From positions 28,740 through 92,739 of the forward strand of contig NZ_JAHEBV010000007.1 of NCBI RefSeq assembly GCF_024642085.1: a stretch of 64,000 nt of DNA. The letters are read 5' to 3'. Under the pieces are notes generated by a model. That model was not told the DNA's origin, did not search any database, and saw only the letters and a list, made by a program, of their open reading frames with translations. The stretch is from Novosphingobium sp. GTDB taxonomy: Bacteria; Pseudomonadota; Alphaproteobacteria; Sphingomonadales; Sphingomonadaceae. Shown here one piece after another: positions 28,092-52,847 of this stretch; the stretch's first letter is position 1; every line of letters starts with the position of its first letter. A program made the translations under genes and the position numbers.

Positions 28092-28808
28092 ATGAACCGA
28101 ATCCGCAATATCGTGATCCTGACTGGAGCGGGCGTGTCTGCTGAAAGTGGCATCGACACCTTTCGTGCCGGTACCGATGGCGGTCCCAGCCTATGGGAGC
28201 AGCACCGCATTGAAGACGTTGCAACGCCTGAAGGCTTTGTCCGTGATCCCGATCTGGTCCACCGGTTCTACGACATGCGCCGTGCCGCCATTCAGCAGAA
28301 GCAGCCCAACGCTGCGCATATGGCACTTGCCCGGCTGGACGCTGTCTGGACGGACAATCTGCTGATTGTCACGCAGAACGTCGATGACCTGCACGAGCGC
28401 GCCGGCGCACGCCGCGTCCTGCACATGCACGGCGAGCATCTTAAAGCATGGTGCACCGCCTGCAGGTCACGCAGCGCTTGGCGTGAAGCTCTGTTCGGAC
28501 GGCCCCCCTGCCCCGTGTGTCAGTCGCGGTCACTGCGGCCCGATGTGGTCTGGTTCGGCGAGATGCCCTACGAAATGGACCGGATCCATGCTGCCCTGCT
28601 CGATGCCGATCTGTTTGTCAGCATCGGCACGTCTGGCGCGGTTTATCCTGCTGCCGGATTCGTCCGTAACGCCCGTGATCTGGGTGCGCAAACGCTCGAA
28701 CTAAATCTCGAACCTAGCCAAGGTTCAGCCATGTTCCATGAAACGCGCCTGGGCAAAGCGGGCGATCTGGTCCCAGCCTGGGTAGCGGAGATATTAGGCG
28801 GCGGGTGA
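28092..28808 (+). CDS. cobB: NAD-dependent protein deacylase (class III sirtuin)
   Basis: GAGVSAESG, TQNVDDLHE, HMHG, CxxC..CxxC, RPDVVWFGE, GTSGAVYPA; FYxxR acyl-pocket motif. Confidence 0.92.
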   Translation: MNRIRNIVILTGAGVSAESGIDTFRAGTDGGPSLWEQHRIEDVATPEGFVRDPDLVHRFYDMRRAAIQQKQPNAAHMALARLDAVWTDNLLIVTQNVDDLHERAGARRVLHMHGEHLKAWCTACRSRSAWREALFGRPPCPVCQSRSLRPDVVWFGEMPYEMDRIHAALLDADLFVSIGTSGAVYPAAGFVRNARDLGAQTLELNLEPSQGSAMFHETRLGKAGDLVPAWVAEILGGG

Positions 28809-37473: not shown

Positions 37474-39027
37474 GTGACGGCTGCGTCGACGCATATTTTC
37501 CGGCTGTTGCGCTGGGGCCGCACGCTGGCCCGCCACGGCGCGCTGCGTGGGATTGAGAAGGATCCCAACACACCGCCTCAGGTCCGCCGCCTGACCCGGA
37601 TCGCACGCTTCGCTGCCGCGCAACCACGGGTGCCTGACTATGCCGGTGCGTTTCAGGATATCGGCCCTGCCGCAATCAAACTGGGCCAAACGCTGGCAAC
37701 ACGCCCCGACATCGTCGGTGACGAGGCAGCAACCAACCTGCTTCTGCTGCAAGACAGTTTGCCGCCCGTGCCTTACGCGGCGATCAAGGCCGAGATCGAA
37801 CGCAGCTTTGCCAAGCCGCTAAGCGCGCTGTTCGCCTCCATTGAAGAGGAGCCGGTCGGCGCCGCTTCGATCGCACAAGTCCATCGTGCGGTTACGACAG
37901 AGGGACGCACTGTCGCGGTCAAGGTCCTCCGCCCAGGCATCCGCGAAAAGTTTGCCGAAGACATCCAGACTTACGAATGGGCCGCCGCACATCTCGAAGC
38001 ATTAGGCGGTGAGGCGACCCGTCTGCGTCCGCGACTTGTGATTGCAAACTTCAAACGATGGACGCTGCGAGAGCTTGACCTGCGGCGAGAGGCAGCGTCG
38101 GCGTCGGAACTTGCCGAGAAAATGGCTACTACCGAAGGGTATCGTGTACCCGGTATCGATTGGGACCGGACCAATGGCCGGGTCATGACTATCGACTGGA
38201 TCGACGGGATAAAGATTAGTGAAACCGATGCTCTACGCGCCGCCGGTCACGATCTGAATGCCTTGGCGCAGCATCTGGTGCTGACGTTTCTAAAACAGGC
38301 AATCAGCATGGGCTATTTTCACGCTGACATGCATCAGGGTAACCTGTTCGTAGAACCCGACGGAACGATTGCCGCAATCGATTTTGGCATCATGGGACGC
38401 ATCGACCGCCGCGCCCGGCTGTGGCTTGCCGAGATACTTTATGGCCTGACCACTGGAAACTACCGGCGCGTCGCCGAAATCCATTTCGAGGCGCAATACG
38501 TGCCAAGTTATCATTCAGTCGACGAGTTCGCGACCGCGCTGCGCGCCGTCGGCGAACCAACGCGAGGCCGCCCGGTTAGCGAACTTTCGGTGGGCCAGAT
38601 GCTCGACAGCCTGTTCGCCATCACGCGCGAGTTCGATATGCAAACGCAGCCGCACCTGTTGTTGCTGCAAAAGACCATGGTTATGGTCGAAGGGCTCGCA
38701 ACTCAGCTCAACCCTCAGATCAATATGTGGGATGTCGCATCTCCCTATGTTCGGGAATGGATCCGTGACGAACTTGGGCCCGAGGCGGCGATTGCCGACC
38801 GGCTCCGCAAAGATGCCGAAACGCTGCTGCGCCTGCCCGATCTGGTCCGGCGAATGGAAGAGAAGTACCCGCCCAAGGGCGGGGCGCCGGAACCGCCGCC
38901 GCTTCCGCAGGTTGACTTGATCTGGGACCGCCGCAAGGCCCAACGGCGCTGGCCGGGCTACCTGATTGCCGCGCTGGCTGGTGGCGGAGTGGTATGGGGG
39001 GTTCAGGCGCTGAACCTGTTGGGCTGA
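37474..39027 (+). CDS. ubiB: Ubiquinone biosynthesis protein kinase-like UbiB
   Basis: IKLGQTLATRPD, AASIAQVH, VAVKV, FHADMHQGN, DFG. GTG start. Confidence 0.95.
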   Translation: MTAASTHIFRLLRWGRTLARHGALRGIEKDPNTPPQVRRLTRIARFAAAQPRVPDYAGAFQDIGPAAIKLGQTLATRPDIVGDEAATNLLLLQDSLPPVPYAAIKAEIERSFAKPLSALFASIEEEPVGAASIAQVHRAVTTEGRTVAVKVLRPGIREKFAEDIQTYEWAAAHLEALGGEATRLRPRLVIANFKRWTLRELDLRREAASASELAEKMATTEGYRVPGIDWDRTNGRVMTIDWIDGIKISETDALRAAGHDLNALAQHLVLTFLKQAISMGYFHADMHQGNLFVEPDGTIAAIDFGIMGRIDRRARLWLAEILYGLTTGNYRRVAEIHFEAQYVPSYHSVDEFATALRAVGEPTRGRPVSELSVGQMLDSLFAITREFDMQTQPHLLLLQKTMVMVEGLATQLNPQINMWDVASPYVREWIRDELGPEAAIADRLRKDAETLLRLPDLVRRMEEKYPPKGGAPEPPPLPQVDLIWDRRKAQRRWPGYLIAALAGGGVVWGVQALNLLG

Positions 39028-39031
39028 ACCA

Positions 39032-39310
39032 ATGGACCTCGACGCCCTTTTGCTCCACTTTTTCGGAACTGACGATCCTGAAACTCTTACCGCCACCGAG
39101 TTCGACCGCGCGGCCGAACAAATGAAAGTAGCCTTCGGCGTGGAACGCGAACCGGGCCGCAAGTTCGCATTGTGGACTTTGCTGCATGCATTCGACATGG
39201 CCCCATTGCCCGCCGAAGCCTTTGCCAAGGAGCCGGAGCTGAGAGCAGCCGCCGACGAATACATGTCGGCGGCTTTTCGATTGGAGCGGTTTGGCGACAG
39301 CGATGGTTAA
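39032..39310 (+). CDS. Small hypothetical protein (92 aa)
   Basis: Fills the ubiB-PTP gap in-strand, with 4-nt spacing on one side and an 8-bp overlap on the other. Confidence 0.75.
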   Translation: MDLDALLLHFFGTDDPETLTATEFDRAAEQMKVAFGVEREPGRKFALWTLLHAFDMAPLPAEAFAKEPELRAAADEYMSAAFRLERFGDSDG

Positions 39311-39767
39311 GCCGGCGGTGCTGTTCGTGTGCTTGGGCAATATCTGTCGCTCGCCGCTGGCCGAAGCAGCGTTTAGGCAGCAGGCATCGGCGGCGGGCCT
39401 TGATGTGCTGGTCGATTCGGCCGGCACCGCTGACTACCATGTCGGCGAACCACCTGACCCACGCGCCATTCGCACGGCATTGCGTTTCGGAATGGATATG
39501 GCGGACTATCGCGGCCGCCAAGTGAGCGCAGATGATTTCGTGCGCTTCACTCACATCTTCGTTGCCGACCGATCCAACCTTCTCAACCTGCACCGTGTGG
39601 CGCCACAAGATCACGCGGCGCAAATCGGCTTGCTCCTCGATCTGATTCCGGGTCGCGAAGGCATGGACCTGACCGACCCGTGGTACGGAGATGAGGCTGG
39701 CTTCCTTGAGACTTGGTCCGACGTTTCCGCCGCAGCTCGGCACTTGGTGGCGCTATTGGAACGGTAA
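39303..39767 (+). CDS. Low-molecular-weight protein-tyrosine phosphatase
   Basis: CLGNICRS P-loop, DSAGT, DPWYG. Confidence 0.95.
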   Translation: MVKPAVLFVCLGNICRSPLAEAAFRQQASAAGLDVLVDSAGTADYHVGEPPDPRAIRTALRFGMDMADYRGRQVSADDFVRFTHIFVADRSNLLNLHRVAPQDHAAQIGLLLDLIPGREGMDLTDPWYGDEAGFLETWSDVSAAARHLVALLER

Positions 39768-39889
39768 GCGCATCACGCCTTCGCGCCTGGCCGGCCGGAT
39801 CACTGAACAGCTTGGCAGTAGTGGAGCCCAAGCATTCGGCGGCGCTGGTCGATTCACGACAGACTAGGCTTTGCCAGACCGTTTGATGC

Positions 39890-39923
39890 AAAACGCCCCA
39901 ACCCGATTACCGGGCTGGGGCGT
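39890..39923 (-). terminator. Intrinsic terminator of the TonB-dependent receptor gene
   Basis: ACGCCCCA..CCCG/CGGG.TGGGGCGT hairpin followed by U4 on the minus strand. Confidence 0.75.
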
Positions 39924-39949
39924 CCACAGATAATCCCAGGTGTGACTAC

Positions 39950-42325
39950 TTAAAAGTCGACGCCGACCTTGACCCCGAAAAGTTGCGGCCGAGTTGGATA
40001 GGTTCGCGCATAAGGTGCGCAGAACCCCGTCGCGCAGAACGTGCCGCGTCCCAGTTCGCCGCGCGTGTCGAAGGCATTTTGGATGAACGCTTCGACACGC
40101 CATTTATCCCAATGGACTCCGGCGGAAAAATCGACGGAAGTGAACGCTTTGGTAAAACCAAGGGCGATGGCTTCGGAGTCAAGCAAAGCGGACCGTGTGC
40201 CGCCTTGGTGGCTGACGACTGTCTGGATGAAGCCCTTGCCGTTCGCCATCGGCGCTTCGTAACGTGCGGTAACGCTGCCCTTGAACTTGGGCATTACCGG
40301 CAGCCTGGTGCCCGCAGGTGCCACCGGCGGCACCAGAGGATCGCAGACAATGTTCTTGGTGACCGGGTCGACAGCGCAAAGATCGGTTGTGGTTTTGGCG
40401 TCGACATAGGTCCCTGACGCCGACAGCGAAAGGCCGCCAATCCGCGTCGAAATATCACCTTCGATACCATAAATGCGCGCATTGCCGGCGTTATAGGTGT
40501 TGGTGATGCCGTTGTTGTTGAGCGGTACCAGCCCGAATTGCACGTTCTTCCACTTTTCGTAGAATGCCGCGCCGTTGAAATAGACGTTGCCGAAATGCGT
40601 CTTCCAACCAACCTCATAATTGTCGAGCTTGTCGGACTTGAATGGGTCAACCCCGGGTCGGCGATTGTTTCCGCCGGGGCGGAAACCGCGTGAAACGGTG
40701 GCGTAAAGCATCAGGTTATCGCTCGGCTTGAAACGAAGGCCACCGCGCCAGATCACACCGCTTTCGACTTGTTTCTTGTCAATGCTAACGCACGGCGATT
40801 CAGGATATGTCGTACCCGCAATGCAAGCGCGCACACTGCTTCCGCCATTAAAACCCGAAAATCCGTACAAGGTATTGTCAGCAATATAACCACGGATGCC
40901 CGCGATCGCAGTAAGCGTAGGGGCCAGATCGTATTCGGCCTGCGCGAACATCGCGTAGTCCCGGTCTTTGCGGAAGATTCGTGAACGAAACACCGTGTCA
41001 TTGTCAAAAACGCCCGGGAACCAGCTTGGCAAAGGCGCAGCTGTGATCCCTGCAACCTTGTAGTCGGCCCTGACCGTGTCGGTCTGGTGCTGCATGAACA
41101 GACCGGCGGTCAGGCGAAACGGCATGTCGCTTGGTGAGGAGACGCGTAGTTCCTGGGTCAGCTTGGTGTACTTGTCCCCCAGAACAACGCTTTGTGTCGG
41201 GTCGAGGAACCCGCCTTTCCCGTCAGGGAAGTAGGTCGCATAAGAACCATAGGTGTCATAGGCGACCGAATAGTAGGAATAGTCCGAAGTGCTATCGACC
41301 TTGCGTTCAAAATAGCCTCCCGAATAGGTCACGTCCCAATCGCTCAGCTTGCCTTGGATGGTTAGTGCAGCCTGCCACCAACGATCGTGGTTGCGGCTAG
41401 GCAGGAAGTCGGTAACGGCAAGGTCACCCTTGGTCGGATCGAACAAGAACCCGCCATTCGCGACCTGATTCTGATAGATGAACTGCGTCGTCGCGGTCCA
41501 GTTGTCATCCAGATCGATTTTCAGTGCCGCGCGGCCACCATAGGTTTCGACATCGTTGTAGTCGTTTTTGACCAGTGCGCTGTTGTTGACGGTCACGTTG
41601 GTAGTTGGGTCTGGATCGTCGAGCGTAAAGGTACGGGTATTTGGAAGATTGTCGATGTAGCCGCCCTGGCGGTCATAGAAGCCTACCACGCGAAGAGCCG
41701 CACTGTCGCCTAGCGGAAAATTGACATAGCCCTCGGCCGAGCCGCCGAAATCGCCCTTGCCATATTTGCTGAGTTGCAAGTCGACGCTGCCCGACGTCTC
41801 GCCGAGCTTTGGTGCGTTAGTGATCAGGCGCAGCACGCCCGACAGTGAGCTCGCGCCGAAGAGGGTACCCTGGGGGCCAGCCAGCGCTTCGACACGGGCT
41901 ACGTCATAAACGTGGAAATCAACCGTTCCGCCGATCGTGGTGACCGGGATTTCATCGATGTACATCGAACTGGTCGGCAGCGGACCGATATGAAGGCCAT
42001 CACCGCCGGACGATACGCCGCGAAAGAAGATTTGCGCCTGGCTGGGACCGAAAGACTGGAAGCTGACGCTGGGCAGCAACTTGGCATAGTCGTCAAAAGA
42101 CTGGACGTTGGCCTGTTCAAGCTTTTGCGCACCCAATGCAGTTATGCTGATGGGGACGTCCTGCAACCGTTCTTCACGGCGCTGCGCAGTCACCACGATC
42201 GCATCGTCGTCACTTGCTTCGTCAGTCGCCGAAGCGTCCTGCGCAAAGGCCGCAGATGGGATAATCAAGGCAGTCGAGGACAGCAGGGCGAACAGGCTGC
42301 GTCGAAATTTCAAATGAGTCTTCAT
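39950..42325 (-). CDS. TonB-dependent receptor
   Basis: Signal peptide, TonB box 'IVVTAQRRE', plug 'EALAGPQGTLFG', C-terminal 'FGVKVGVDF'. Confidence 0.95.
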   Translation of the reverse strand: MKTHLKFRRSLFALLSSTALIIPSAAFAQDASATDEASDDDAIVVTAQRREERLQDVPISITALGAQKLEQANVQSFDDYAKLLPSVSFQSFGPSQAQIFFRGVSSGGDGLHIGPLPTSSMYIDEIPVTTIGGTVDFHVYDVARVEALAGPQGTLFGASSLSGVLRLITNAPKLGETSGSVDLQLSKYGKGDFGGSAEGYVNFPLGDSAALRVVGFYDRQGGYIDNLPNTRTFTLDDPDPTTNVTVNNSALVKNDYNDVETYGGRAALKIDLDDNWTATTQFIYQNQVANGGFLFDPTKGDLAVTDFLPSRNHDRWWQAALTIQGKLSDWDVTYSGGYFERKVDSTSDYSYYSVAYDTYGSYATYFPDGKGGFLDPTQSVVLGDKYTKLTQELRVSSPSDMPFRLTAGLFMQHQTDTVRADYKVAGITAAPLPSWFPGVFDNDTVFRSRIFRKDRDYAMFAQAEYDLAPTLTAIAGIRGYIADNTLYGFSGFNGGSSVRACIAGTTYPESPCVSIDKKQVESGVIWRGGLRFKPSDNLMLYATVSRGFRPGGNNRRPGVDPFKSDKLDNYEVGWKTHFGNVYFNGAAFYEKWKNVQFGLVPLNNNGITNTYNAGNARIYGIEGDISTRIGGLSLSASGTYVDAKTTTDLCAVDPVTKNIVCDPLVPPVAPAGTRLPVMPKFKGSVTARYEAPMANGKGFIQTVVSHQGGTRSALLDSEAIALGFTKAFTSVDFSAGVHWDKWRVEAFIQNAFDTRGELGRGTFCATGFCAPYARTYPTRPQLFGVKVGVDF

Positions 42326-42418
42326 CTCATATCCCCGAATTTTGATACCGTAGAGCGGGTGTGAGTCAGCGTGCAGCGCGAAACAATCGACAAATCGACT
42401 TACTGCACACTTTTCGGA

Positions 42419-44056
42419 TCAGGCGTTGCCCGCTTGCCACGCATCCGGCACGTCTGGATAGCAGCGTAACACATCACCAAGCGCGATTTTGAGCGGATCA
42501 AGCTGGTGATCGATATTGCGCCACCGGCCCTCGCCGCTGCGATTTATTGGCTGACGCACTTGTTCACTGCTGGGCGTACGAACCGGTCGGCGATTGCTGG
42601 CAAAATCGATACAGGCACGCTCGAACGGAAGGTTCAGGGCGGAGAGCAAAAGACCGATTTCCTGTTCTGGATCGTCGAGCAGGCGCTCGTGGATCACCCG
42701 GTGTATCCGTCCCGGCAGGACACGGTCGAAGTGCGCCATCAGGCGAACATAGTCGCCATAGTAATGACCGATGTCACCAAGATCATAGGAAAATGCCTGA
42801 CCGCGGGCAAAATGCTGGCGGAAATTGGAGTAGCCGCAATCAAGCGGGTGTCGCCTTGCATCGATGATTCGTGCGTTCGGCAAAATCAAGTGGATCAAGC
42901 CGGCATGCATCCAGTTGTTGGGAAGCTTATCGATGAACAACGGCTTGCCTTCACGGCGCTGAATCCGGGTTGTCGCGAGATAGCTCTCGCCCAGTGCGGA
43001 CAACTGGGCTGGCGCAAGGGAATCCAGGAGACGCGGGTATGCACCTTCACGGGCAAGCCGATTGACGATGCCTGGTATGTCGGGAAGTTCCATCGTTCCT
43101 TCTACCATGCTGTGGCTGGACAGGATCTGCTCGACAAGGGTCGATCCGGCTCGCGGCATGCCAACGATGAAGACCGGATCGGGCGCCTGGCATCCCTGTC
43201 CCTTGCGCCTGGCCACAAACTCGGGCGTGAACAGTTCGATGATCCGGTCAACCGCGCGCGCGGTGTCTGCGGCATCATAGGGCAACTCGCAGCGCCGTAG
43301 GCGATTGGCTTCCAGATAGTGATCGAACGCCGCCGCAGCCTGGCCGGAATCTTCGAGCGACTTGGCCAGCGCGAAATGCAGATGGTAGCGGTCGTCCGCG
43401 CTAATGCCCTGATCGCCAAGCGCGGTTTCGATCGCAGCACGGTCGGCCGCATCCATCCGGGCGGTCTTGAGGTTGGCGATGCTCCACCATGCTTCGCCGA
43501 AACCAGGGCGTTTGGCGATCGCAGTGCGGTATGCGGCAATTCCATCATCCAGCCTGCCAACGGTCTTGAGTGTATGCCCGTAGCTGAGCCAGATCGGCGC
43601 AGGGCTGTGTTCGCGCGACAGGATGTCCTCATACAGCGCAAGCGCTTCGTCGAACTCGCCGATGCGGCCCGCAACTGCCGCGCGCAGGGTCGCATGTGAA
43701 GGATCGTCAGGCTCCTCGCGGGATACCAGGTCCAGCTCGTTCAATGCCTCCGCCTCACGGTTTTGGCGGTGCAGCAACAGAGCCAGGTTTGAGCGAGCCG
43801 CTGTAAAACCGGGGGCGATCTCAAGCGCCCGGCGTAGTAACGTCTCTGCATCGCGCAGCCGCCCGATCCGTCCGGCCAATTCGGCTAGCATCCGGATAGC
43901 GTACACATCGAACGGATCAGCCTTGAGATGCTGGCGCAAAAGGGGTTCGGCCCTGCTCAGTTCGTTGGCATTGAGCGCCGCGGCTGCCTCGATCAGGCGA
44001 GGATGGTAGCCAGACGGATCCAGTTTGGGCGGCACGGCAAAGCGATCATCGGTCAT
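42419..44056 (-). CDS. TPR-repeat sulfotransferase family protein
   Basis: N-terminal TPRs, 5'-PSB 'GMPRAGSTLVEQIL', 'DKLPNN', 3'-PB 'RHPLDCGYSNF'. No signal peptide. Confidence 0.9.
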   Translation of the reverse strand: MTDDRFAVPPKLDPSGYHPRLIEAAAALNANELSRAEPLLRQHLKADPFDVYAIRMLAELAGRIGRLRDAETLLRRALEIAPGFTAARSNLALLLHRQNREAEALNELDLVSREEPDDPSHATLRAAVAGRIGEFDEALALYEDILSREHSPAPIWLSYGHTLKTVGRLDDGIAAYRTAIAKRPGFGEAWWSIANLKTARMDAADRAAIETALGDQGISADDRYHLHFALAKSLEDSGQAAAAFDHYLEANRLRRCELPYDAADTARAVDRIIELFTPEFVARRKGQGCQAPDPVFIVGMPRAGSTLVEQILSSHSMVEGTMELPDIPGIVNRLAREGAYPRLLDSLAPAQLSALGESYLATTRIQRREGKPLFIDKLPNNWMHAGLIHLILPNARIIDARRHPLDCGYSNFRQHFARGQAFSYDLGDIGHYYGDYVRLMAHFDRVLPGRIHRVIHERLLDDPEQEIGLLLSALNLPFERACIDFASNRRPVRTPSSEQVRQPINRSGEGRWRNIDHQLDPLKIALGDVLRCYPDVPDAWQAGNA

Positions 44057-44131
44057 GGGCCCAGCAACAAACATGGTGACGCCGTTCGATCAAGCGGTAG
44101 GTTGCGCGTCATCACCGGCGAGGAGCGATAG

Positions 44132-45439
44132 ATGACGGGGCCGAACAAAGCCAAGCTGGGTTTCTGGGCGCTGCTGGCGCTGGTAGTCGGCAACATGATT
44201 GGATCGGGCATCTACCTGTTGCCGGCCACGCTGGCCCCGTTGGGCTGGAATCAGGCGGCGGGATGGATCGTGACCCTTGGCGGCGCGCTGTGCCTGGCGG
44301 CAGTGTTCGCCGGACTGGCGGCGCGCGTACCGCGCGCCGGCGGGCCCTATGCCTATGCCGATGCCGCGTTTGGCCCGGTGACCGGTTATACTGCGGCCTG
44401 GGCATATTGGGTGATGACCTGGGTGGGAAATGGAGCCATCGCGATTGCAGTGGTCAGCAACCTCAGCCTGATCTTTCCGGTTATTGGCACGATCGCCGGT
44501 TTGCCCGCCCTGCTGGCCATCGCCTTTGTCTGGCTGCTCACCCTGGTTAACCTGCGCGGGGTGCGCGAAGCGGGGCAGGTGCAGACCGTCACCACCGTGC
44601 TCAAGGTTCTGCCGCTGATCGCGCTGATTATCCTGGCGCTGTGGTTTGTGCTGAGCGGAGCGCCCCGCGCACCAGATCCTGGAATAGCGCTTTCGGGCAG
44701 CACGATAGCAACGGCTGCGGGACTGACCTTCTGGGGATTTCTTGGCCTTGAAAGCGCAACTGTCCCTGCCGACAAGGTTGAGAATGCCGCACGCAACGTG
44801 CCCCGCGCGACGATGATTGGCGTTGTCCTGACGGGCCTTGTGTACCTCGGCATATCGCTGGCATTCGCACTTTATATGCCGGTGGACGAGGCGGCCCGAT
44901 CGCCCGCGCCGGTGGCAGATTTCCTGGGCAAGACGTTCGGCGCTGGTGTGGCAGTAGTGGTCGCCCTGTTCGCCGCGATCAGCGCCTTCGGCGCGCTTAA
45001 CGGCTGGATCCTGGTTCAGGGCGAAATGCCCTGGGCAATGGCGCGGGGCGGTGTATTCCCGCGCTGGTTCGCCAAAGAAAATGCCAACGGCACTCCGGTG
45101 CGCGGACATCTGGTGTCCAGCGTGCTGCTGACCGGCATGATCCTGATCAATTCGCAAAAGGGCATGGGCAAACTGTTTGAGTTCATCGGCTCGGTCAGCA
45201 TCGCCGCCGGGCTGGTCGCCTACCTTCTCAGCGCCCTGGCGGCGATCCGCTTGGTCGGGGATGACCGGCGGCTGACCGCCGCCGCGCTGGTCGCCGCTGC
45301 TTTCACGTTGTGGGCCGAATGGGGCCTTGGCTGGCAGGCAAACCTTTATGGCGGGGCGCTGATCCTGGCCGGACTGACGCTTTACCCCTTGGTCAGGACC
45401 GCAGGATCTTCCGGATCAGCGGCCGGTCAGCCAGGATAG
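44132..45439 (+). CDS. APC-superfamily basic amino acid/polyamine (APA) permease
   Basis: NMIGSG (TM1), WGFLGLESA (TM6) and GALNGWIL (TM8) align with the AdiC/PotE substrate-site motifs. Confidence 0.9.
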   Translation: MTGPNKAKLGFWALLALVVGNMIGSGIYLLPATLAPLGWNQAAGWIVTLGGALCLAAVFAGLAARVPRAGGPYAYADAAFGPVTGYTAAWAYWVMTWVGNGAIAIAVVSNLSLIFPVIGTIAGLPALLAIAFVWLLTLVNLRGVREAGQVQTVTTVLKVLPLIALIILALWFVLSGAPRAPDPGIALSGSTIATAAGLTFWGFLGLESATVPADKVENAARNVPRATMIGVVLTGLVYLGISLAFALYMPVDEAARSPAPVADFLGKTFGAGVAVVVALFAAISAFGALNGWILVQGEMPWAMARGGVFPRWFAKENANGTPVRGHLVSSVLLTGMILINSQKGMGKLFEFIGSVSIAAGLVAYLLSALAAIRLVGDDRRLTAAALVAAAFTLWAEWGLGWQANLYGGALILAGLTLYPLVRTAGSSGSAAGQPG

Positions 45440-46991
45440 CCCGCGCCGCGTTGTGGCCCGGAGCGCCCGTGACCCCGCCGCCGGGGTGCGTACCGGAACC
45501 GCACATGTAAAGTCCCCTGATCGGCCCGCGATAATCGCCATGGCCCAGCACCGGGCGCGCCGCCCACAGCTGGTCGATGCCCATCGTGCCGTGGAAGATG
45601 TCCCCGCCGATCAGTCCGAACTTGCGTTCCAGGTCAAGCGGCGAATGGATCTGCCGGGCGATCACCGATCCCTTGAAGTTTGGCGCGTGGTCGGTGACCG
45701 TGTCGATGATCAGATCAGCCACTTCTTCACGGTGCGCATCCCAGTCCAGCGTGGGATCGAACTGCTGGCAGAACAGCGATGCGACGTGCTGGCCGGGCGG
45801 GGCCAGGCTGTCATCGACGGTCGAAGGGATCTTGATCTCGACAATCGGCTTTTTCGACCAGCCGTGCTGCTGCGCATCGATAAAGGCCTGGTCCATGTAA
45901 TCCATACCGGGCGCGATAATGATCCCGGCGGTGTGATGCTCGCCTTGCGCCTTGCCCGGAAGGACCGAAAAGCTGGGCAGCTCGGAAAGTGCCACGTTCA
46001 TGCGGAAGGTGCCCGACCCGGTCTTGTATGTCTTCATCCGCCGCTTGAAATCATCGTCCAGATCGGCCCCGTCAACCAGCTGGCGATAGAGCAGCGCCGG
46101 GCCGACATTGGCCGCCACGATCGGCGCGACCAGTTCCTCGCCGCCGTCAAGCTTGACCCCGCGCACCTTGCCGCCATCGACCAGCAATTTTGCCACCGGC
46201 GCTTCCAGGGTGATTTCTACCCCGGCATCTTCGCAGGCGCGGGCCATGGCCTGCGTAATTGCGCCCATGCCGCCAACCGCGTGGCCCCAGGCACCCAGCT
46301 TGCCGTTAACTTCACCGAACACGTGGTGCAGCAGGACATAGGCACTTCCCGGCGTTGACACCCCGGCGTAATTGCCAACCACCGCGTCAAAGGCGAAGGC
46401 AGATTTGACGTGGTCGTCCTCAAACCAGGCGTCCAGAAAATCGCGCGCCGACTTGGTGAAGATCGCCAGCAGATCGCGCTGGGTGGCCATGTCCAGCCTG
46501 GCCATCGGCCAGCCCTGCTTTGCTGCCGCCAGCAGCGCATTCAGCCCGCCGCCGACATTGGGCGGTGCCTGCAGCGACAGTTCGCGCAAAACATTGGCGA
46601 CCTTTTCCAGAGCGGCATCGTAGGCGGGATACGCTGCCGCATCCTTTTTGGAGAAACGGGCGAACTCGGCCTCGGTCCGGCCCGGACCTCCACCAAGCTT
46701 GAGGTACGTGTCGGGGAATGGAAAAAAGTTGCTGATTGTCCGTTCGATCACGCGGTAGCCATAGTCGTGCAGCTTCATGTCGGCGATGACCTTGGGCCGC
46801 AGCAGGCTGACGGTGTAACTGGCGGTTGAATTGCGGAAACCGGGATGAAACTCTTCGGTCACTGCCGCCCCGCCGACAATATGGCGCCGCTCCAGCACAC
46901 GTACCCGCATTCCTGCCTTGGCCAGGTAAAAGGCGCAGGTCAGGCCGTTGTGGCCCCCACCGATAATCAGCGCGTCATAGGTCTTGGTCAT
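45393..46991 (-). CDS. COG1233/PYROXD2-like FAD-dependent oxidoreductase
   Basis: GGGHNG, LERR..VGGAAVTEE, GMGAITQAM, GDIFHG, GLYMCGSGTHPGGGVTGAPG. Confidence 0.9.
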   Translation of the reverse strand: MTKTYDALIIGGGHNGLTCAFYLAKAGMRVRVLERRHIVGGAAVTEEFHPGFRNSTASYTVSLLRPKVIADMKLHDYGYRVIERTISNFFPFPDTYLKLGGGPGRTEAEFARFSKKDAAAYPAYDAALEKVANVLRELSLQAPPNVGGGLNALLAAAKQGWPMARLDMATQRDLLAIFTKSARDFLDAWFEDDHVKSAFAFDAVVGNYAGVSTPGSAYVLLHHVFGEVNGKLGAWGHAVGGMGAITQAMARACEDAGVEITLEAPVAKLLVDGGKVRGVKLDGGEELVAPIVAANVGPALLYRQLVDGADLDDDFKRRMKTYKTGSGTFRMNVALSELPSFSVLPGKAQGEHHTAGIIIAPGMDYMDQAFIDAQQHGWSKKPIVEIKIPSTVDDSLAPPGQHVASLFCQQFDPTLDWDAHREEVADLIIDTVTDHAPNFKGSVIARQIHSPLDLERKFGLIGGDIFHGTMGIDQLWAARPVLGHGDYRGPIRGLYMCGSGTHPGGGVTGAPGHNAARAILADRPLIRKILRS

Positions 46992-47109
46992 GAAGGGTTC
47001 GATCTCGCTTGGAAGTTCACACAAACATCACAGGGTACTGGAAATAAAAAATGCGCCGATTCCCGCGGCAAAGCGGATGATGACAGCGGCCGGCAAAGTA
47101 GGAAAGCGA

Positions 47110-48309
47110 TCACCGCCGGCTCCACCCTGGTGCAGGGGCAAAGGGCTGGCGCGCTTCGGGGATCAGGGTGCGGATCTTGCGGGCAAAGCTGCGCAGGCAA
47201 ACCTCGCTTTGTGCAATCGGTCCGGTGCCATAGGTCTTGCTGGCCATACCTTGCTGGACGCGCGAAATCAGCCAGGTGTCCTCGGCATTGACGACGCGGT
47301 TGATCCGCCAGTTGGCATAGCGCGCCAGTTTCATTGCACGCTGCTGGCCCGGCGGGGTGTAGGTATCGGGCAGGCAATAGGCCACTTCGCGCAGCATGCA
47401 GGTGGTCGGCGTCAGCGGCAGCCACTGCATGAAATCGATCTGATCGGCATAGATGTCAAAGGCCATGTTGGGCCACAGCTTGTAGTACAGCCAGCGCCCC
47501 TGCGCCTCGGCAGGCAGGTGATCCGCGCTGGGCCGGTGCGCGGCATAGAAGCGCTCCCAGAAGTTCTGCCGGCTTGACCTTTCGACATCGCCGTACAGCC
47601 GGTCGGCCCAGCCGTGCGCTTCGATCCGGTAGCTTTTGCCGACCAGCCGGGTCAGCCCGTCGTGCGCGACGGGAATGTGGAGGTTGTCCGAATAATTATC
47701 GCCGACGTTCTTCCAGTTGACCCCGCGCGGGCGCAAGCGAACCTGGCCCATCGGCTGCATTTCGGCAAAGCGGTAGGGCGCAATCTCGGCCTCGAAGGGC
47801 GCCATCATTTCAGCTACCGAGGGAAAGCCGCGATCTTCCAGCCGGACGAACACAAATCCGTTCCATTGTTCGACGGCAACCGGCGCCAGGCCGTTTTCTT
47901 CAAGCTTCAGCGCCGGGTATTCGCCCTTCATCGGCACCCCGGTCAGCCGCCCGTCAGTTTCATACGTCCAGGCGTGATAAGGGCAGACAAGCTTGCGGGT
48001 GCAGCCAGCCGGGCCTTCTACCAGCCGCATCGCACGGTGGCGGCAGACATTGGTGAAAGCGCGCACTGCGCCGTCTTCACCCCGGATGACAATTACGCTT
48101 TCGCCGCAAAAATCGATCGTGCGGTAATCGCCGGGCTGCGCCAGCTCGTTTAGATGGCAGACGATTTGCCAGCTGGGACGGAACACGCGGTCAAGCTCAA
48201 GCGCGAAGAACTCGGGATCGGAATAGATCCAGCCCGGCAGGCTGACATCGGCGTCGGGGTCGGGCGCAGCGCTGACGATATCGGCAAAGGCGTGTTCAGG
48301 ATTGCCCAT
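47110..48309 (-). CDS. Rieske non-heme iron oxygenase alpha subunit (choline monooxygenase/GbcA/Stc2-like)
   Basis: CRH...CPYH Rieske motif, NWK, DNLHIPVAH, C-terminal ED. No beta subunit or reductase adjacent. Confidence 0.9.
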   Translation of the reverse strand: MGNPEHAFADIVSAAPDPDADVSLPGWIYSDPEFFALELDRVFRPSWQIVCHLNELAQPGDYRTIDFCGESVIVIRGEDGAVRAFTNVCRHRAMRLVEGPAGCTRKLVCPYHAWTYETDGRLTGVPMKGEYPALKLEENGLAPVAVEQWNGFVFVRLEDRGFPSVAEMMAPFEAEIAPYRFAEMQPMGQVRLRPRGVNWKNVGDNYSDNLHIPVAHDGLTRLVGKSYRIEAHGWADRLYGDVERSSRQNFWERFYAAHRPSADHLPAEAQGRWLYYKLWPNMAFDIYADQIDFMQWLPLTPTTCMLREVAYCLPDTYTPPGQQRAMKLARYANWRINRVVNAEDTWLISRVQQGMASKTYGTGPIAQSEVCLRSFARKIRTLIPEARQPFAPAPGWSRR

Positions 48310-48329
48310 GGCGGCGCACGACTCCGAAA

Positions 48330-48355
48330 GCTTGTTGGACAAATGTACAACAAGC
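48330..48355. promoter_or_regulatory. Palindromic TetR/BetI-type operator
   Basis: GCTTGTTGGAC-AAAT-GTACAACAAGC (one mismatch) in the 61-bp divergent gap. Confidence 0.8.
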
Positions 48356-48370
48356 GTTAGACCGGCGCAA

Positions 48371-48967
48371 GTGAACACGATCCCTGCCTTCACCCGCGCC
48401 GAACCCGATGCCCGCCGTGCCAGCCTGATCGCCGCCGCCGCGCAGGTACTGGCGCGTCACGGCGTCGCCGGCACCAGCGTGCGCGCAATCGCTGTTCAGG
48501 CGGGGGTATCGCCCGGTCTGGTCGGTCACTATTTTGACGGAATCGACGCGCTGATCGCGGAAACCTATGCGCATGTCGAAGCGCAAGTCGCCGCTGCCAT
48601 CGATGCTGCTGTGGCCAGCGCCGGACCGGACCCGCGCGCCCGGCTTGATGCCTTCGTTACCGCCAGCTTTGCTCCGCCCGTCGCCTCTCCCGACCTGCTC
48701 GCAACATGGATCGCGTTCTGGAGCCTGGTGCCTTCGCGTCCTGCCATCGCCGGCCAGCATGATGAGCAATACGCTCAGTTCCGCGCGCGGGTGGAAGGGC
48801 TGCTGGGCGATTGCGGACTTGCCCGCGAACGGCAGCGCCTTGCTGCCATCGCCATCACCGCACTGGTGGATGGATTGTGGCTGGAACTGTGCCTTTCCCC
48901 CCACGCCTTCAGCGCGCAAGAAGCGGGGGGAATCGCACGCGCAAACCTTGACGCGCTACTTCGATAG
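48371..48967 (+). CDS. TetR family repressor with BetI-type C-terminal domain
   Basis: HTH 'SVRAIAVQAGVSPGLVGHYF', 'WIAFWS', 'ALVDGLWLE'. GTG start. Confidence 0.9.
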   Translation: MNTIPAFTRAEPDARRASLIAAAAQVLARHGVAGTSVRAIAVQAGVSPGLVGHYFDGIDALIAETYAHVEAQVAAAIDAAVASAGPDPRARLDAFVTASFAPPVASPDLLATWIAFWSLVPSRPAIAGQHDEQYAQFRARVEGLLGDCGLARERQRLAAIAITALVDGLWLELCLSPHAFSAQEAGGIARANLDALLR

Positions 48968-50362
48968 GGCCGTGAACAGGCTGGTGTAATAAATCAGCGC
49001 CGGGCGCGTGTTGCGCAAGGCAATGCGTTCGTTAAGCCCGTGCGAGAAATCATCCGAATCCTTGGAAAACAGGGGGCTGGCGCCATAGCTTGGCACGCCG
49101 AGCGCGCGGAACCACATCGAATCGGATGCGCCCGATGCCTGCGAAGGAAACATCGGCGTCCCCGGCCATGCCTTGGCCAGCGCGGTTTGCGCCGCAGCGA
49201 TGAAATCCGGGCGCAGCGGCGACGCCGGCGATGCGATCGAATCCTCACCCGATACAGCCGTGACCTTCAGCCCCGGCATGGCCGCGATCTTTTCCAGCGC
49301 TGCGCGGATTTCCTCGCGACTGTGGCCGGGAAAAATGCGGCAATTGACGTTGGCGGTGACCCGCTGGGGCAGCGCATTCTGCGCATGGCCACCCGAAATC
49401 ATTGTGGGCACGCAGGTTGTTCCCACCTTGCCCACATAGGCCGGATTGGCGCGCAAGGTTTCCAGCGCCGCCGCGTCCTGGGGGTTGGCGGCAAAGGCGC
49501 GCATCGCCCCGGCCAGCGCGGGGTTTACCTCGAACCGGGCGGCCTGTTCGAAATAGGCCTTGGTCAGCGGGCTGAGTTCAGCCGGGAAGCGATAAGACCC
49601 GACCCGGTCCAGCGCCTGGGCGAGCTGGACGATGGCGTTGTCGGGCCGCGGGGCGGAACTGTGCCCGCCGGGATTGGTCATTTCCAGTTCGTAATCGTCG
49701 TAGGTCTTCTCGGCACCTTGCCAAGTCCAGTACAGCGGCTTTCCGCTTGTCTCATCAAAGGTGCCCCCGCCGCCGTCTATGTTGATTACCATTTCGGCAT
49801 TCTTCAACCGCTCGGCGATCAGCCGGCTGGTTTTCATCGTTGTTTCCTCGTCGCCCGAAAACTCAAGCACCACAGTCCGGCGCGGCCGGTAACCCGCCTG
49901 GCGCAAGGCAATCAGCGTGGCTGTGCCCAGCGCCGCATCGAACTTCATGTCGCTCGCCCCGCGGCCAAACAGGTAGCCGTTTTCAACCACCGGGGTGAAG
50001 GGATCGCGGGTCCAGTCCTTGGGATCGGCTGCGACCACGTCGATGTGCCCGGAAATGACCAGCGGCCCCAGCGAAGGGTCGCTGCCCGGCCAGGTCGCCA
50101 CCAGATAGGCCGTATCGTCGACCGGCACGATCTCGACATCCTTGTCCAGCCATCCCGCCTGGGTAAGCGCGGCCTTGACCACCTGCTGCGCCTCGGCCGT
50201 GCGGTTTTCCGGCCCGCGCACCGAGCGGATCGCGATCAGCCGCTTGGCCAGATCAAGCGTTTGCGCCTCGGCTTTCGTCAGGTCCGCAGCACGCTGACTG
50301 GCAACAGCGGGGCTGGCAGCAATGGCAAGGATCGGGATGAACGGCGCAATAATCTGACGCAT
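48956..50362 (-). CDS. Secreted M20/M25/M40 metallo-hydrolase
   Basis: Signal peptide, SGHIDVV, GRGASDMK, GDEE, GGHSSAP, GASDS, HGLNERI. Confidence 0.9.
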   Translation of the reverse strand: MRQIIAPFIPILAIAASPAVASQRAADLTKAEAQTLDLAKRLIAIRSVRGPENRTAEAQQVVKAALTQAGWLDKDVEIVPVDDTAYLVATWPGSDPSLGPLVISGHIDVVAADPKDWTRDPFTPVVENGYLFGRGASDMKFDAALGTATLIALRQAGYRPRRTVVLEFSGDEETTMKTSRLIAERLKNAEMVINIDGGGGTFDETSGKPLYWTWQGAEKTYDDYELEMTNPGGHSSAPRPDNAIVQLAQALDRVGSYRFPAELSPLTKAYFEQAARFEVNPALAGAMRAFAANPQDAAALETLRANPAYVGKVGTTCVPTMISGGHAQNALPQRVTANVNCRIFPGHSREEIRAALEKIAAMPGLKVTAVSGEDSIASPASPLRPDFIAAAQTALAKAWPGTPMFPSQASGASDSMWFRALGVPSYGASPLFSKDSDDFSHGLNERIALRNTRPALIYYTSLFTALSK

Positions 50363-50471
50363 GGCATTTCCTTGTGTCTAAAACCGTGTTCCAATTATTC
50401 GCTGGCTTAGCGAAGCATTTACTTATCCACGATATTTCGCCTCAGTAACAAAACAGGGGCGCGCGTTAATA

Positions 50472-52847
50472 ATGGTTAGCAGACAGGCCGTGCTGCGCAC
50501 CGCCGTAGCGCCCGAGTTGCGGGATTGGGTCGATAACCGACTCATCAGCGCACACATTCGAATCGTCAAGCCGATGGTTGCCGGCACACTTTTGAACGCG
50601 GCGGTGATCGTTGCCGCCCTGATCGGTCAGATCGGCGCACTGCATATCGCCATGTTCGCCGTTTCAAGCATCGCTGCCGCTTATCACCGCATGTGGCTCG
50701 CCGAAGGGATCGCCCGGGGACGCCGGCAGAAACGTCTGCACAAGATTGCTGCCGCCTTTGCCAGCAATACGGTCTGGATGGGGCTAAACATGGGCGTGCT
50801 GCTGGCGATCTGGCTGCCGGCAGTATCGACTGACACCCAGATCCTGCTGGCGATTTCGGCCACTACACAGATTGCTTCGGCGGCCTACACGGTTCGCACT
50901 CTGCCGCGTTCGGCCGCGGTCTATGTAGCCAGCCAGGCGCTTGGCCTGACCATGGGTCTGGCGCGCATGCCCACCCCCACGACGCTGGGTGCGATCGCGA
51001 TCCTGCTGGCCGCGAGCGCCTTGCTGATCCGCATGGCCTTTACCGCGCGGGACCTGTTCATCACCCGCATCCTGTCCGATCGCGAGCTGGCCGCAAGCGC
51101 CCGCACCGTGAAACTGCTGCTTAATGAATATGAGGAAAGCGGATCGGACCTGTTGTTCGAAACCGACCGCGACGGCCGGCTTGTGGGCGTTTCGCAGCGG
51201 CTCGCCGCGGCTATCGGACGACCGGCTGAGGAACTGGAAGGCGCGCTGCTGAGCGAAATATTGAAACGCGATGCCGCAATCGATGAATTGCAGGGTGCGA
51301 TTGCCGGCCGCAAGCGGATTACCGACCTTGTCGCCACCCTTGACGGGACCGACGGGCAATCACGCTGGTGGTCGATCACCGGGCGGCCGTGCTTCCCGGT
51401 TGACGGTGATCGGGCGGCTTTTCGGGGGGTCATCACCGACGTGACATCGCAGCGCATTGCCGAAGGGCGCGCCCAGCGCATGGCACAGTTCGATACGCTG
51501 ACCGGCTTGCCCAACCGGGCCAGCTTTGATCTGGCTCTTGAGCACGTACTGGCACAACGATGCCAGGATGATCAGGTGGCCCTGTTGCTGGTCGATATCG
51601 ATCACTTCAAGCATATCAACGATGTTCATGGCCACCCCGTTGGCGACGCATTGCTGCGTTTGCAGGCAGAAGCGATGGCAGGTTATGTCGAGGAAAGCGG
51701 GCTTGGCGGCATTGCGCCCGTGGTCGCCCGCCTGGGCGGCGACGAGTTCGCGATCATCGTGACCGGTGAGGACGCCTGCGACCATGCCGTGCGCCTTTCA
51801 GAGATTCTGATCGATGTGCTGTCCCAGCCGATCATGGTTGAAGGCCATGATCTGGCGGTAACGGTTTCGATCGGGGTTGCCCTGGCACCTTATCACTCCG
51901 ATCAGAAGCTGCAGCTGCAGTCCTATGCCGGGATCGCCCTGCACAGCGCCAAGCAAGGCGGCCGGGCAACATGGGAAATGTTCGAACCGGGCATGGACGC
52001 CGTGCTGCACGAACGTCACTCGCTGGCCCTGGACCTGCGTTATGCCGTGCCGCGCGGTGAATTGCGCCTGTTCATTCAGCCGCTGGTCGACGTGGCGAGC
52101 GAAGCGATGACCGGTTACGAGGCGCTGCTGCGCTGGCAGCACCCGACCCGCGGGCTGGTAGCGCCCGACACGTTTATCCCGATTGCCGAGGAAACCGGCC
52201 TGATCGTGCCAATCGGCGAATGGGTCATCCGTTCCGCCTTTGCCGAAGCGGCATCATGGGAAGGCGACCAGACCATCGCGATCAACCTGTCGGCCGTGCA
52301 GATCGCCAACGCCAACCTGCTGCCGGTGATCGTCAATGCCCTGGGCGAAACCGGCCTTGACCCTGCCCGCGTCGAGTTCGAAATTACCGAAAGCGTGCTG
52401 CTGCACAATTCGGAAGCCAATATCGAAGTGCTCAACCGCCTGCACAGCCTGGGTGTAAAGATTGCGCTGGACGATTTTGGCACCGGCTATGCATCACTTA
52501 CCTATTTGCTGACTTTCCCGTTCGACAAGATCAAGATCGATCGCCGCTTCATCTCGGAATTGTCAACGCGCGAGGAATCGCGGGCGATTGTCGGCGCAGT
52601 CATCGCGCTGGCCAACCAGCTGGGGATGTGCACCCTGGCCGAAGGGGTCGAGGAACCCGAACAGCTGGACGCGCTTCGCCAGCACGGCTGCCGCATGGTC
52701 CAGGGCTGGCTTTTCGGCAAGGCGCTGCCTTCAGAGGAATACCACCCGCGCCGTGAAATCGCGCTGGCCGCCCCTGCGCCGGTGCGCTTGCCCCGCACGC
52801 GCAAGGTCCGCATTGCGCAGACGTCTGCCCGCCGCGCGCGGGCCTGA
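50472..52847 (+). CDS. Membrane PAS-GGDEF-EAL diguanylate cyclase/phosphodiesterase
   Basis: N-terminal TMs, PAS, intact GGDEF, EALLRW, EITE, DDFGTG, KID, EGVE, QG. Confidence 0.93.
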   Translation: MVSRQAVLRTAVAPELRDWVDNRLISAHIRIVKPMVAGTLLNAAVIVAALIGQIGALHIAMFAVSSIAAAYHRMWLAEGIARGRRQKRLHKIAAAFASNTVWMGLNMGVLLAIWLPAVSTDTQILLAISATTQIASAAYTVRTLPRSAAVYVASQALGLTMGLARMPTPTTLGAIAILLAASALLIRMAFTARDLFITRILSDRELAASARTVKLLLNEYEESGSDLLFETDRDGRLVGVSQRLAAAIGRPAEELEGALLSEILKRDAAIDELQGAIAGRKRITDLVATLDGTDGQSRWWSITGRPCFPVDGDRAAFRGVITDVTSQRIAEGRAQRMAQFDTLTGLPNRASFDLALEHVLAQRCQDDQVALLLVDIDHFKHINDVHGHPVGDALLRLQAEAMAGYVEESGLGGIAPVVARLGGDEFAIIVTGEDACDHAVRLSEILIDVLSQPIMVEGHDLAVTVSIGVALAPYHSDQKLQLQSYAGIALHSAKQGGRATWEMFEPGMDAVLHERHSLALDLRYAVPRGELRLFIQPLVDVASEAMTGYEALLRWQHPTRGLVAPDTFIPIAEETGLIVPIGEWVIRSAFAEAASWEGDQTIAINLSAVQIANANLLPVIVNALGETGLDPARVEFEITESVLLHNSEANIEVLNRLHSLGVKIALDDFGTGYASLTYLLTFPFDKIKIDRRFISELSTREESRAIVGAVIALANQLGMCTLAEGVEEPEQLDALRQHGCRMVQGWLFGKALPSEEYHPRREIALAAPAPVRLPRTRKVRIAQTSARRARA

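Follow-up and report, generated by a model that had tools for sequence, protein, structure and literature searches.

A Novosphingobium locus that pairs a Rieske oxygenase with a PYROXD2-family flavoprotein and its possible role in the use of methylated basic amino acids

Which substrate is served by a Novosphingobium gene cluster that pairs a Rieske oxygenase with a flavoprotein binding flavin adenine dinucleotide (FAD) and sets both beside a permease, an outer-membrane receptor, a sulfotransferase and a repressor? The cluster lies in a stretch of 64,000 nucleotides (the window: positions 28,740 to 92,739 of contig NZ_JAHEBV010000007.1, RefSeq assembly GCF_024642085.1), for which a sequence-only reading had proposed six contiguous accessory genes for the utilisation of an N-methylated basic amino acid or amine, for example of the methyl-lysine or methyl-arginine type. 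Open reading frame (ORF) listing and profile searches of the window proteins with Pfam and NCBIfam models recovered all six genes at the positions given there, with three starts in need of trimming, and the proposed kind of substrate gained support from neighbourhood conservation, formaldehyde genes, a basic amino acid context and a link to PYROXD2. We put at about even the chance that the locus imports and oxidatively N-demethylates methylated basic amino acids, probably derived from peptides. N6-methylated lysines would be the most likely substrates and methyl-arginines come second; the former fit human PYROXD2 data, and the latter fit DDAH-like partner genes in relatives. That methyl-lysine specifically is the substrate is a tentative and rather doubtful claim. 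The cluster, including an M20 peptidase gene that is probably a seventh member of the set, consists of:

39950-42325, minus strand: TonB-dependent receptor (TBDR) with Plug (PF07715) and barrel (PF00593) domains and a signal peptide
42419-44074, minus strand: TPR-sulfotransferase with a Sulfotransfer_3 domain (PF13469 at 1.2e-42) and TPR repeats, leaderless
44132-45439, plus strand: APA-type (AdiC-like) permease (TIGR00905 at 3.7e-82, AdiC at 8.5e-73)
45393-46991, minus strand (ORF to 47024): COG1233/PYROXD2-family FAD flavoprotein of 532 amino acids (aa), from homologues and profile scores
47110-48309, minus strand (ORF to 48393): Rieske alpha subunit of 399 aa (PF00355 and PF00848)
48331-48354, no strand: palindromic operator CTTGTTGGACAAATGTACAACAAG, an inverted repeat in the TetR/Rieske spacer
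48371-48967, plus strand (ORF from 48302): BetI-like TetR of about 198 aa (PF00440, and PF13977 at 2.4e-22)
48956-50362, minus strand: periplasmic M20 metallopeptidase (PRK09133 at 561 bits) with a signal peptide

By sequence comparison, the flavoprotein was assigned to the PYROXD2 family and is closer over its full length to animal PYROXD2 than to the carotenoid enzymes CrtI and CrtO or to other named subfamilies. UniRef gives the name PYROXD2 to its close homologues, and in an exhaustive search of 1.84 billion representative proteins the oyster PYROXD2 cluster took rank 18 among the matches (43% identity, 428 bits, residues 3-522); mayfly PYROXD2 is also 43% identical over the full length. 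The protein has one N-terminal FAD motif and no second dinucleotide (NAD(P)H)-binding fold. Scores were 122.5 bits with the CrtI model TIGR02734 (cut-off 238.1) and 257.3 bits with the CrtO model NF045689 (cut-off 1000), which is still its best NCBIfam match. A carotenoid role was rejected on these scores, far below the cut-offs, and on the lack of carotenoid genes in the neighbourhoods examined. In humans, a missense single-nucleotide polymorphism in PYROXD2 accounts for 50% of the variance in plasma N6-methyl-lysine and for 48% of that in N6,N6-dimethyl-lysine, and trimethyl-lysine and N-methylpipecolate are associated with the locus as well (PMC8109053). A passage of PMC8777681 describes the PYROXD2 reaction as still unknown, and we found no description of one in the literature. 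Since 1963 rat kidney has been known to contain a flavoenzyme activity that turns free N6-methyl-lysine into lysine and formaldehyde, and the authors of the review that covers it equate this old epsilon-alkyllysinase activity with LSD1 (PMC3936616). We propose that the window flavoprotein is an oxidase or dehydrogenase of N-methyl amines of the N6-methyl-lysine type, which would release formaldehyde. Paralogous COG1233 genes that are 36-45% identical to it were seen at G096:C161:19867-42873 and also in genomes G111, G123, G081, G026 and G112. Some genomes of families f8 and f2 hold five to seven such paralogues, several of them within about 25 kb, and this packing suggests a large island of related oxidoreductases.

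The neighbours of the flavoprotein and Rieske genes in relatives point in the same chemical direction. In family f2 the gene order is GGT (gamma-glutamyltranspeptidase)-Rieske-flavoprotein-FrmA-FghA, in which FrmA (S-(hydroxymethyl)glutathione dehydrogenase) scores 639.6 bits with TIGR02818 (cut-off 544) and FghA (S-formylglutathione hydrolase) 390.1 bits with TIGR02821 (cut-off 281.7). At three further loci, from three families (L150, L152, L158), a zinc alcohol dehydrogenase 77-80% identical to the f2 FrmA lies near the flavoprotein gene alone, in two of them together with an FghA-like esterase. Altogether, frmA/fghA genes stand next to the flavoprotein gene in five genomes of three families, which fits N-demethylation by a formaldehyde-releasing enzyme. 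The other informative partners are APA-type basic amino acid permeases, a DDAH/arginine-deiminase-like hydrolase and peptidases. APA permeases are rare (0-2 per genome), and in 35 of the 69 genomes of the order Sphingomonadales that have one it is encoded within 8 kb of a Rieske or flavoprotein gene. Family f4 has an operon of APA permease, DDAH/ADI-like hydrolase and Rieske orthologue, and family f8 a cluster of flavoprotein, TetR, APA permease and DDAH-like hydrolase. Genes for M20, S9, S10, M24 and Xaa-Pro-dipeptidase-type peptidases, amino acid permeases and TonB receptors recur beside cluster genes and beside receptor-sulfotransferase pairs. No ring-cleavage, beta-subunit or carotenoid gene was present in any neighbourhood examined.

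Conservation of the neighbourhood, a check suggested with the sequence-only reading, turned out positive: the core of TetR, Rieske-flavoprotein pair and APA permease recurs across the Sphingomonadales and in one other alphaproteobacterial family. A scan for relatives of the Rieske protein, with one genome per species, gave 451, and we took neighbourhoods from the best 80, all of which derive from Novosphingobium or sphingomonads and nearly all of which keep the gene order of the window on their contigs. The M20 gene adjoins the cluster in 68 of the 80 Novosphingobium loci and, rearranged, in other genera; the core itself is present in the 80 Novosphingobium loci and, in altered order and orientation, in many genera of the family. 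A sample of 201 Sphingomonadales genomes contained 120 with a flavoprotein match (E<=1e-60, paralogues included) and 47 with the Rieske gene. Forty-three of these 47 also hold the orthologous flavoprotein gene, which is adjacent in 27, and several genera have the two reading frames abutting or overlapping. A further family of the order and two alphaproteobacterial genomes from elsewhere also have the two genes side by side; one genome of another alphaproteobacterial family (G427) has the complete permease-flavoprotein-Rieske-TetR arrangement with an operator-like palindrome.

Presence is nested within the family (75 genomes of the sample): all 28 Rieske-positive genomes have the flavoprotein, which occurs alone in 21 others. 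This fits an optional upstream step, catalysed by the Rieske enzyme, that feeds a core enzyme. The label accessory, applied earlier to all six genes, holds for the genes of the Rieske enzyme, TetR, permease, sulfotransferase and receptor, which some members of a genus have and others lack, and does not suit the nearly core flavoprotein. In the same 75 genomes the orthologous sulfotransferase (at least 53% identity) follows the Rieske gene (both, n = 26; Rieske only, n = 2; sulfotransferase only, n = 1; neither, n = 46), a pattern that recurs inside at least eight genera and holds in six genomes in which the two genes are 50-650 kb apart. Three congeners have lost both flanks of a retained flavoprotein gene, and other genera, despite changes in order and orientation, keep the receptor-sulfotransferase pair and the M20 gene next to the core. 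The earlier suspicion that receptor and sulfotransferase had joined the cluster separately did not survive this comparison, in which the two go with the Rieske gene more tightly than anything else in the cluster does.

The Rieske protein (PF00355 at 76 bits, PF00848 at 146 bits) carries the expected cluster and iron ligands CRH, CPYH (CXH/CXXH) and HIPVAH (HX4H) in an alignment to CntA. It is classed on its profile matches as a stand-alone non-heme-iron oxygenase alpha subunit outside any characterised amine-oxygenase equivalog. Its nearest solved structure is CntA (PDB 6y8j, 1.4e-35, alignment over residues 16-287), followed by aromatic dioxygenases and then by stachydrine demethylase (Stc2). 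The GbcA model NF058607 matched at 139.7 bits (cut-off 670) and covered residues 45-247 only, and the HcaE model gave 109.5 bits (cut-off 830). We propose that the enzyme acts on a methyl group that the flavoprotein cannot remove, that is, a quaternary or guanidino N-methyl group. The genome encodes five Rieske alpha subunits, the others at about 20.7, 41.0 and 49.0 kb of contig C55 and about 4.2 kb of contig C10. A distant homologue (about 45% identical; L122, G217:C83, 3950-7467) lies between genes for an MTHFR-like protein and a PotD/PotF-type polyamine-binding protein, a further setting of this Rieske clade that combines one-carbon and amine genes. At L134 (6940-8151), L154 (10317-11579), L155 (9661-10968), L192 (1792-3042) and L151 (near 7903), the flavoprotein orthologue adjoins a Rieske alpha subunit of another clade (24-34% identical to that of the window); the pairing of flavoprotein and Rieske enzyme is thus broader than one orthologous pair.

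The permease is predicted to carry a cationic amino acid or amine across the inner membrane. Its scores do not reach the equivalog cut-offs (TIGR00905, 276.6 bits against 409; AdiC, 245.6 bits against 574), and it keeps equivalents of the AdiC substrate site at N22, S26, G27, Y93, N101, W202, E208, W293 and Y365, in agreement with the AdiC motifs named in the sequence-only reading; the roles of these residues we take to be those in the AdiC structures. The TetR protein matches the ligand domain PF13977 at 79.7 bits and falls below both BetI models (TIGR03384, 111.7 bits against 201.3; NF001978, 107.2 bits against 118). Its putative operator, which had also been pointed out before, proved to be a real palindrome of 24 bp within 15-nt inverted arms, situated in the 61-bp divergent TetR/Rieske promoter region. 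It is kept in nearly all of 68 orthologous Novosphingobium TetR/Rieske spacers, and related palindromes occupy the equivalent site in other genera and in G427 outside the order. Under a strict pattern it has a single match in the whole 2.9-Mb genome. Direct control of the permease, receptor or peptidase promoters by TetR through a second operator was dropped, as the strict pattern matches nowhere else in the genome.

The receptor is probably the outer-membrane entry for the substrate, likely a peptide. Its residues 333-367 (window 41225-41329) form a Tyr-rich acidic segment, TYSGGYFERKVDSTSDYSYYSVAYDTYGSYATYFPDG, with eight Tyr in 30 residues. The position of this segment beside a TPST-like enzyme is compatible with sulfation of the receptor by the sulfotransferase, whose TPR arm resembles that of OGT and whose match to tyrosine sulfotransferase is weak. 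The TPR-sulfotransferase has one gene copy in this genome and may serve the receptor instead of a small molecule; it has no place in demethylation chemistry and forms a two-gene module with the receptor. A TBDR and a leaderless TPR-sulfotransferase adjoin in every locus where both were found, and TPR-sulfotransferases are multi-copy across the order (145 of 201 genomes, up to seven copies). The M20 peptidase, at 561 bits above the PRK09133 cut-off of 349, probably cleaves imported peptides or N-acyl amino acids to yield free amino acids, and M20 paralogues sit in receptor-sulfotransferase-peptidase loci of other families. The lower G+C content that had been noted for receptor and sulfotransferase was confirmed (0.568 and 0.605, against 0.63-0.67 in the other four genes), but their G+C content at third codon positions (0.67) is the same as in ubiB, a housekeeping gene of the flank, and horizontal transfer of the two genes was rejected since composition shows no foreign origin. 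The window TBDR is about 42% identical to the TBDR at the same place in most congeners and 80% identical in two loci, which suggests allelic replacement in place. Receptor/TPR-sulfotransferase pairs were also observed inside peptidase loci of families f4 and f8 (L191, G055:C16; L192, G118:C1; L193, G031:C1), with an S9 prolyl-oligopeptidase-type peptidase, a PD40 beta-propeller, an amino acid permease, an M20 peptidase and an Xaa-Pro-dipeptidase-type amidohydrolase as partners; from their gene content these look like peptide-utilisation loci.

Taken together, the genes could form the following route. Peptides would be carried across the outer membrane by the TonB-dependent receptor, amino acids would be liberated by the periplasmic M20 peptidase, and the methylated cationic amino acid would enter through the AdiC-like permease. 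The Rieske enzyme would hydroxylate an N-methyl group that a flavin cannot attack, on a quaternary nitrogen as in trimethyl-lysine or on a guanidino nitrogen, with release of formaldehyde. The PYROXD2-family flavoprotein would then oxidise tertiary and secondary N-methyl amines to lysine and formaldehyde (the 'epsilon-alkyllysinase' reaction). The BetI-like TetR, bound to the 24-bp palindrome, would repress the divergent Rieske-flavoprotein promoter until a methylated amine binds. Such a route would explain why the flavoprotein is a widespread core and the Rieske enzyme an add-on, why formaldehyde genes follow Rieske and flavoprotein genes, and why animals have the flavoprotein only. A bolder version, which we regard as unlikely, holds that the PYROXD2 family is the missing gene for oxidative demethylation of free N6-alkyl-lysines and that the locus is a complete bacterial route for scavenging methyl-lysine from peptides. 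Here the Rieske enzyme would extend the range to trimethyl-lysine and might draw electrons from the amine oxidation of the flavoprotein, as an NAD(P)H-independent pair, and the TonB receptor, possibly tyrosine-sulfated, would be the entry gate.

Several observations weigh against the use of methylated basic amino acids, and the first concerns the Rieske enzyme. An amine and an aromatic substrate cannot be told apart from its sequence alone: aromatic dioxygenases (IadD, HcaE-type) score nearly as well as CntA, and the window protein has Asp (DNYSDNLH) where CntA (DNYMECYH) and Stc2 have Glu, at a position (Glu205 of CntA) that we take from the CntA structure to bridge the Rieske and iron sites. 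The case for an amine is consequently made by gene context. An aromatic or isoprenoid oxidation pathway would suit this classical bridging Asp, the close second place of aromatic dioxygenase alpha subunits, the source annotations ('aromatic ring-hydroxylating dioxygenase' and 'phytoene desaturase family') and CrtO as best NCBIfam match of the flavoprotein (257 bits). We nevertheless judge a non-amine substrate highly improbable, as the scores stay far below every cut-off concerned (CrtO, 257 against 1000; CrtI, 122.5 against 238.1; HcaE, 109.5 against 830) and the neighbourhoods hold permeases, formaldehyde detoxification, DDAH-like and peptidase genes and no beta-subunit, ring-cleavage or carotenoid genes; an aromatic role was rejected on these model cut-offs and the gene context. 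Electron supply is another adverse point. There is no reductase, ferredoxin or beta-subunit gene near the Rieske gene in the locus, and the whole genome lacks a PF00175 (FNR-type) reductase and encodes only three PF00111 (Fer2) proteins, none near the locus. The gap could be filled if the flavoprotein were the redox partner of the Rieske enzyme, passing on electrons from NAD(P)H or from an oxidised amine. The Rieske gene never occurs without a flavoprotein of the PYROXD2-type family, the two genes abut or overlap in several genera, and flavoprotein orthologues also adjoin unrelated Rieske paralogues (24-34% identity). Yet beyond its one FAD motif the flavoprotein shows no second fold for NAD(P)H binding, it is found alone in the majority of genomes and likewise in animals, where Rieske enzymes of this kind are missing, and in family f4 its gene is far from the Rieske operon; moreover, we know of no CrtI-family protein that reduces a Rieske oxygenase. 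A redox-partner role is accordingly rated improbable.

The identity of the methylated amino acid is where the clues diverge: DDAH-like partners point to arginine derivatives and human genetics to lysine derivatives. Guanidino-methylated arginines (monomethylarginine, MMA; asymmetric and symmetric dimethylarginine, ADMA and SDMA) or another guanidino compound, from which the Rieske enzyme would remove a guanidino N-methyl group, would agree with the f4 operon of APA permease, DDAH/ADI-like hydrolase and Rieske orthologue (about 50% identity, in many genomes), with the f8 cluster of flavoprotein, TetR, APA permease and the same DDAH-like gene, and with the best score of the permease against AdiC, an arginine/agmatine antiporter. 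Flavin amine oxidases, however, would hardly be expected to act on guanidino N-methyl groups; this genome has no DDAH-like gene, the DDAH-like proteins of relatives reach about 100 bits against dimethylargininase cut-offs of 340-450, and the one hint at the function of the flavoprotein family leads to lysine derivatives (PMC8109053). We hold methyl-arginines as the substrates to be unlikely. The extent of the unit is likewise debatable. The operator stands before the Rieske-flavoprotein genes only and is absent, under the strict pattern and in the whole genome, before the permease, receptor and peptidase genes, which weakens the case for co-regulation of all seven genes. TetR, Rieske and flavoprotein, perhaps with the permease, may be the functional unit, and receptor, sulfotransferase and M20 peptidase an independent peptide-uptake locus alongside. 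The wide and multi-copy occurrence of receptor-sulfotransferase pairs (145 of 201 genomes, up to seven), their presence in peptidase/permease loci without Rieske orthologues in other families, and the low identity (about 42%) of the window TBDR to its counterparts in most congeners would agree with such a division. Set against it are the joint gain and loss of sulfotransferase and Rieske genes in at least eight genera (26/2/1/46), even at distances of 50-650 kb, the loss of both flanks of the flavoprotein gene in three congeners, and the persistence of the receptor-sulfotransferase pair beside the core after rearrangements; we consider the division quite unlikely. The Fisher test of this co-occurrence (about 1e-16) ignores phylogeny and is hence descriptive. 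Also adverse to the use of methylated basic amino acids is the situation outside the Sphingomonadales, where the flavoprotein orthologue is mostly solitary among unrelated neighbours. At twenty such loci, in other families and one other class, no partner genes were found, and ten Pfam-annotated neighbours were unrelated; inside the order, too, solitary copies have housekeeping genes as neighbours.

The arrangement of the locus is compact. Homologue comparison trimmed the Rieske start to 48309 (399 aa) and the flavoprotein start to 46991 (532 aa), and the TetR start is most likely the GTG at 48371; with these starts the Rieske and TetR genes are non-overlapping and divergent with a 61-bp spacer between them. 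The permease and flavoprotein genes converge with 3' ends that overlap by 47 bp (45393-45439), and the TetR and M20 genes converge with an overlap of 12 bp (48956-48967). No terminator-like structure was found between either convergent pair, a promoter and terminator scan of the locus gave a result no better than shuffled sequence, and there was no Rfam match, riboswitches included, at E<=0.1 in window 39000-51000. One flank consists of the housekeeping genes mutM, ubiE and ubiB and a low-molecular-weight phosphatase gene, and the other of a GGDEF/EAL protein gene and zwf. The low-molecular-weight phosphotyrosine phosphatase gene (39291-39767, plus strand) lies between ubiB and the receptor gene.

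Methylated lysines and arginines are released whenever protein is degraded, and we found no description of their bacterial breakdown in the literature. Nor did we find this gene set described there, in line with the earlier statement that no described pathway with it was known to the reader. Human PYROXD2 is mitochondrial and linked to a severe infantile disorder, and a bacterial relative at the orthologue level offers a concrete and cheap biochemical way to test the PYROXD2 reaction.

Among known systems, the proposed logic is that of glycine betaine catabolism, a Rieske enzyme followed by flavoprotein demethylases, although by sequence every component is of a different family or subfamily. 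In the Pseudomonas pathway (GbcAB, DgcAB, SoxBDAG), a Rieske enzyme takes the first methyl group off a quaternary nitrogen, flavoproteins remove the rest and formaldehyde is released, and GbcA is the top NCBIfam match for the N-terminal half of the window Rieske protein. The latter scores below the GbcA cut-off, however, and no GbcB-type reductase is encoded in the locus or genome. The window flavoprotein has the PYROXD2/CrtI fold, unlike DgcA and Sox, transport is by an APA antiporter-type permease instead of BCCT or ABC systems, and the regulator is a TetR protein. What the locus adds is the link to a basic amino acid permease, direct formaldehyde-detoxification neighbours, nested presence, and coupling to a receptor-sulfotransferase-peptidase set. 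With the carnitine monooxygenase CntA/CntB it shares a homomeric, alpha-only Rieske enzyme with conserved Rieske and 2-His motifs, while it lacks a CntB/YeaX partner and has Asp in place of Glu205; the reaction of CntA is a C-N cleavage that yields trimethylamine, while formaldehyde-detoxification genes beside window-type genes suggest methyl hydroxylation. BetI, the choline-responsive TetR repressor of bet genes, has the same C-terminal ligand-domain family (PF13977) and is likewise a divergent repressor with a palindromic operator; the window TetR differs in scoring below both equivalog cut-offs and in the genes it would control. The flavoprotein is a full-length relative of animal PYROXD2, 43% identical to the invertebrate proteins, and the reaction proposed for it, N6-methyl-lysine to lysine and formaldehyde, is that of the rat-kidney epsilon-alkyllysinase, presumably EC 1.5.3.4; the connection of that enzyme to the PYROXD2 gene is one we infer, and animals lack the Rieske partner. 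Finally, the leaderless TPR and TPST-like enzyme beside a receptor with a Tyr-rich acidic segment resembles the enigmatic TonB-receptor/TPR-sulfotransferase module of Proteobacteria, for which we found no published function. Here, by contrast, both position and presence or absence link one orthologous lineage of the module to a defined catabolic core of Rieske enzyme and flavoprotein, and this link offers a way into the function of the module.

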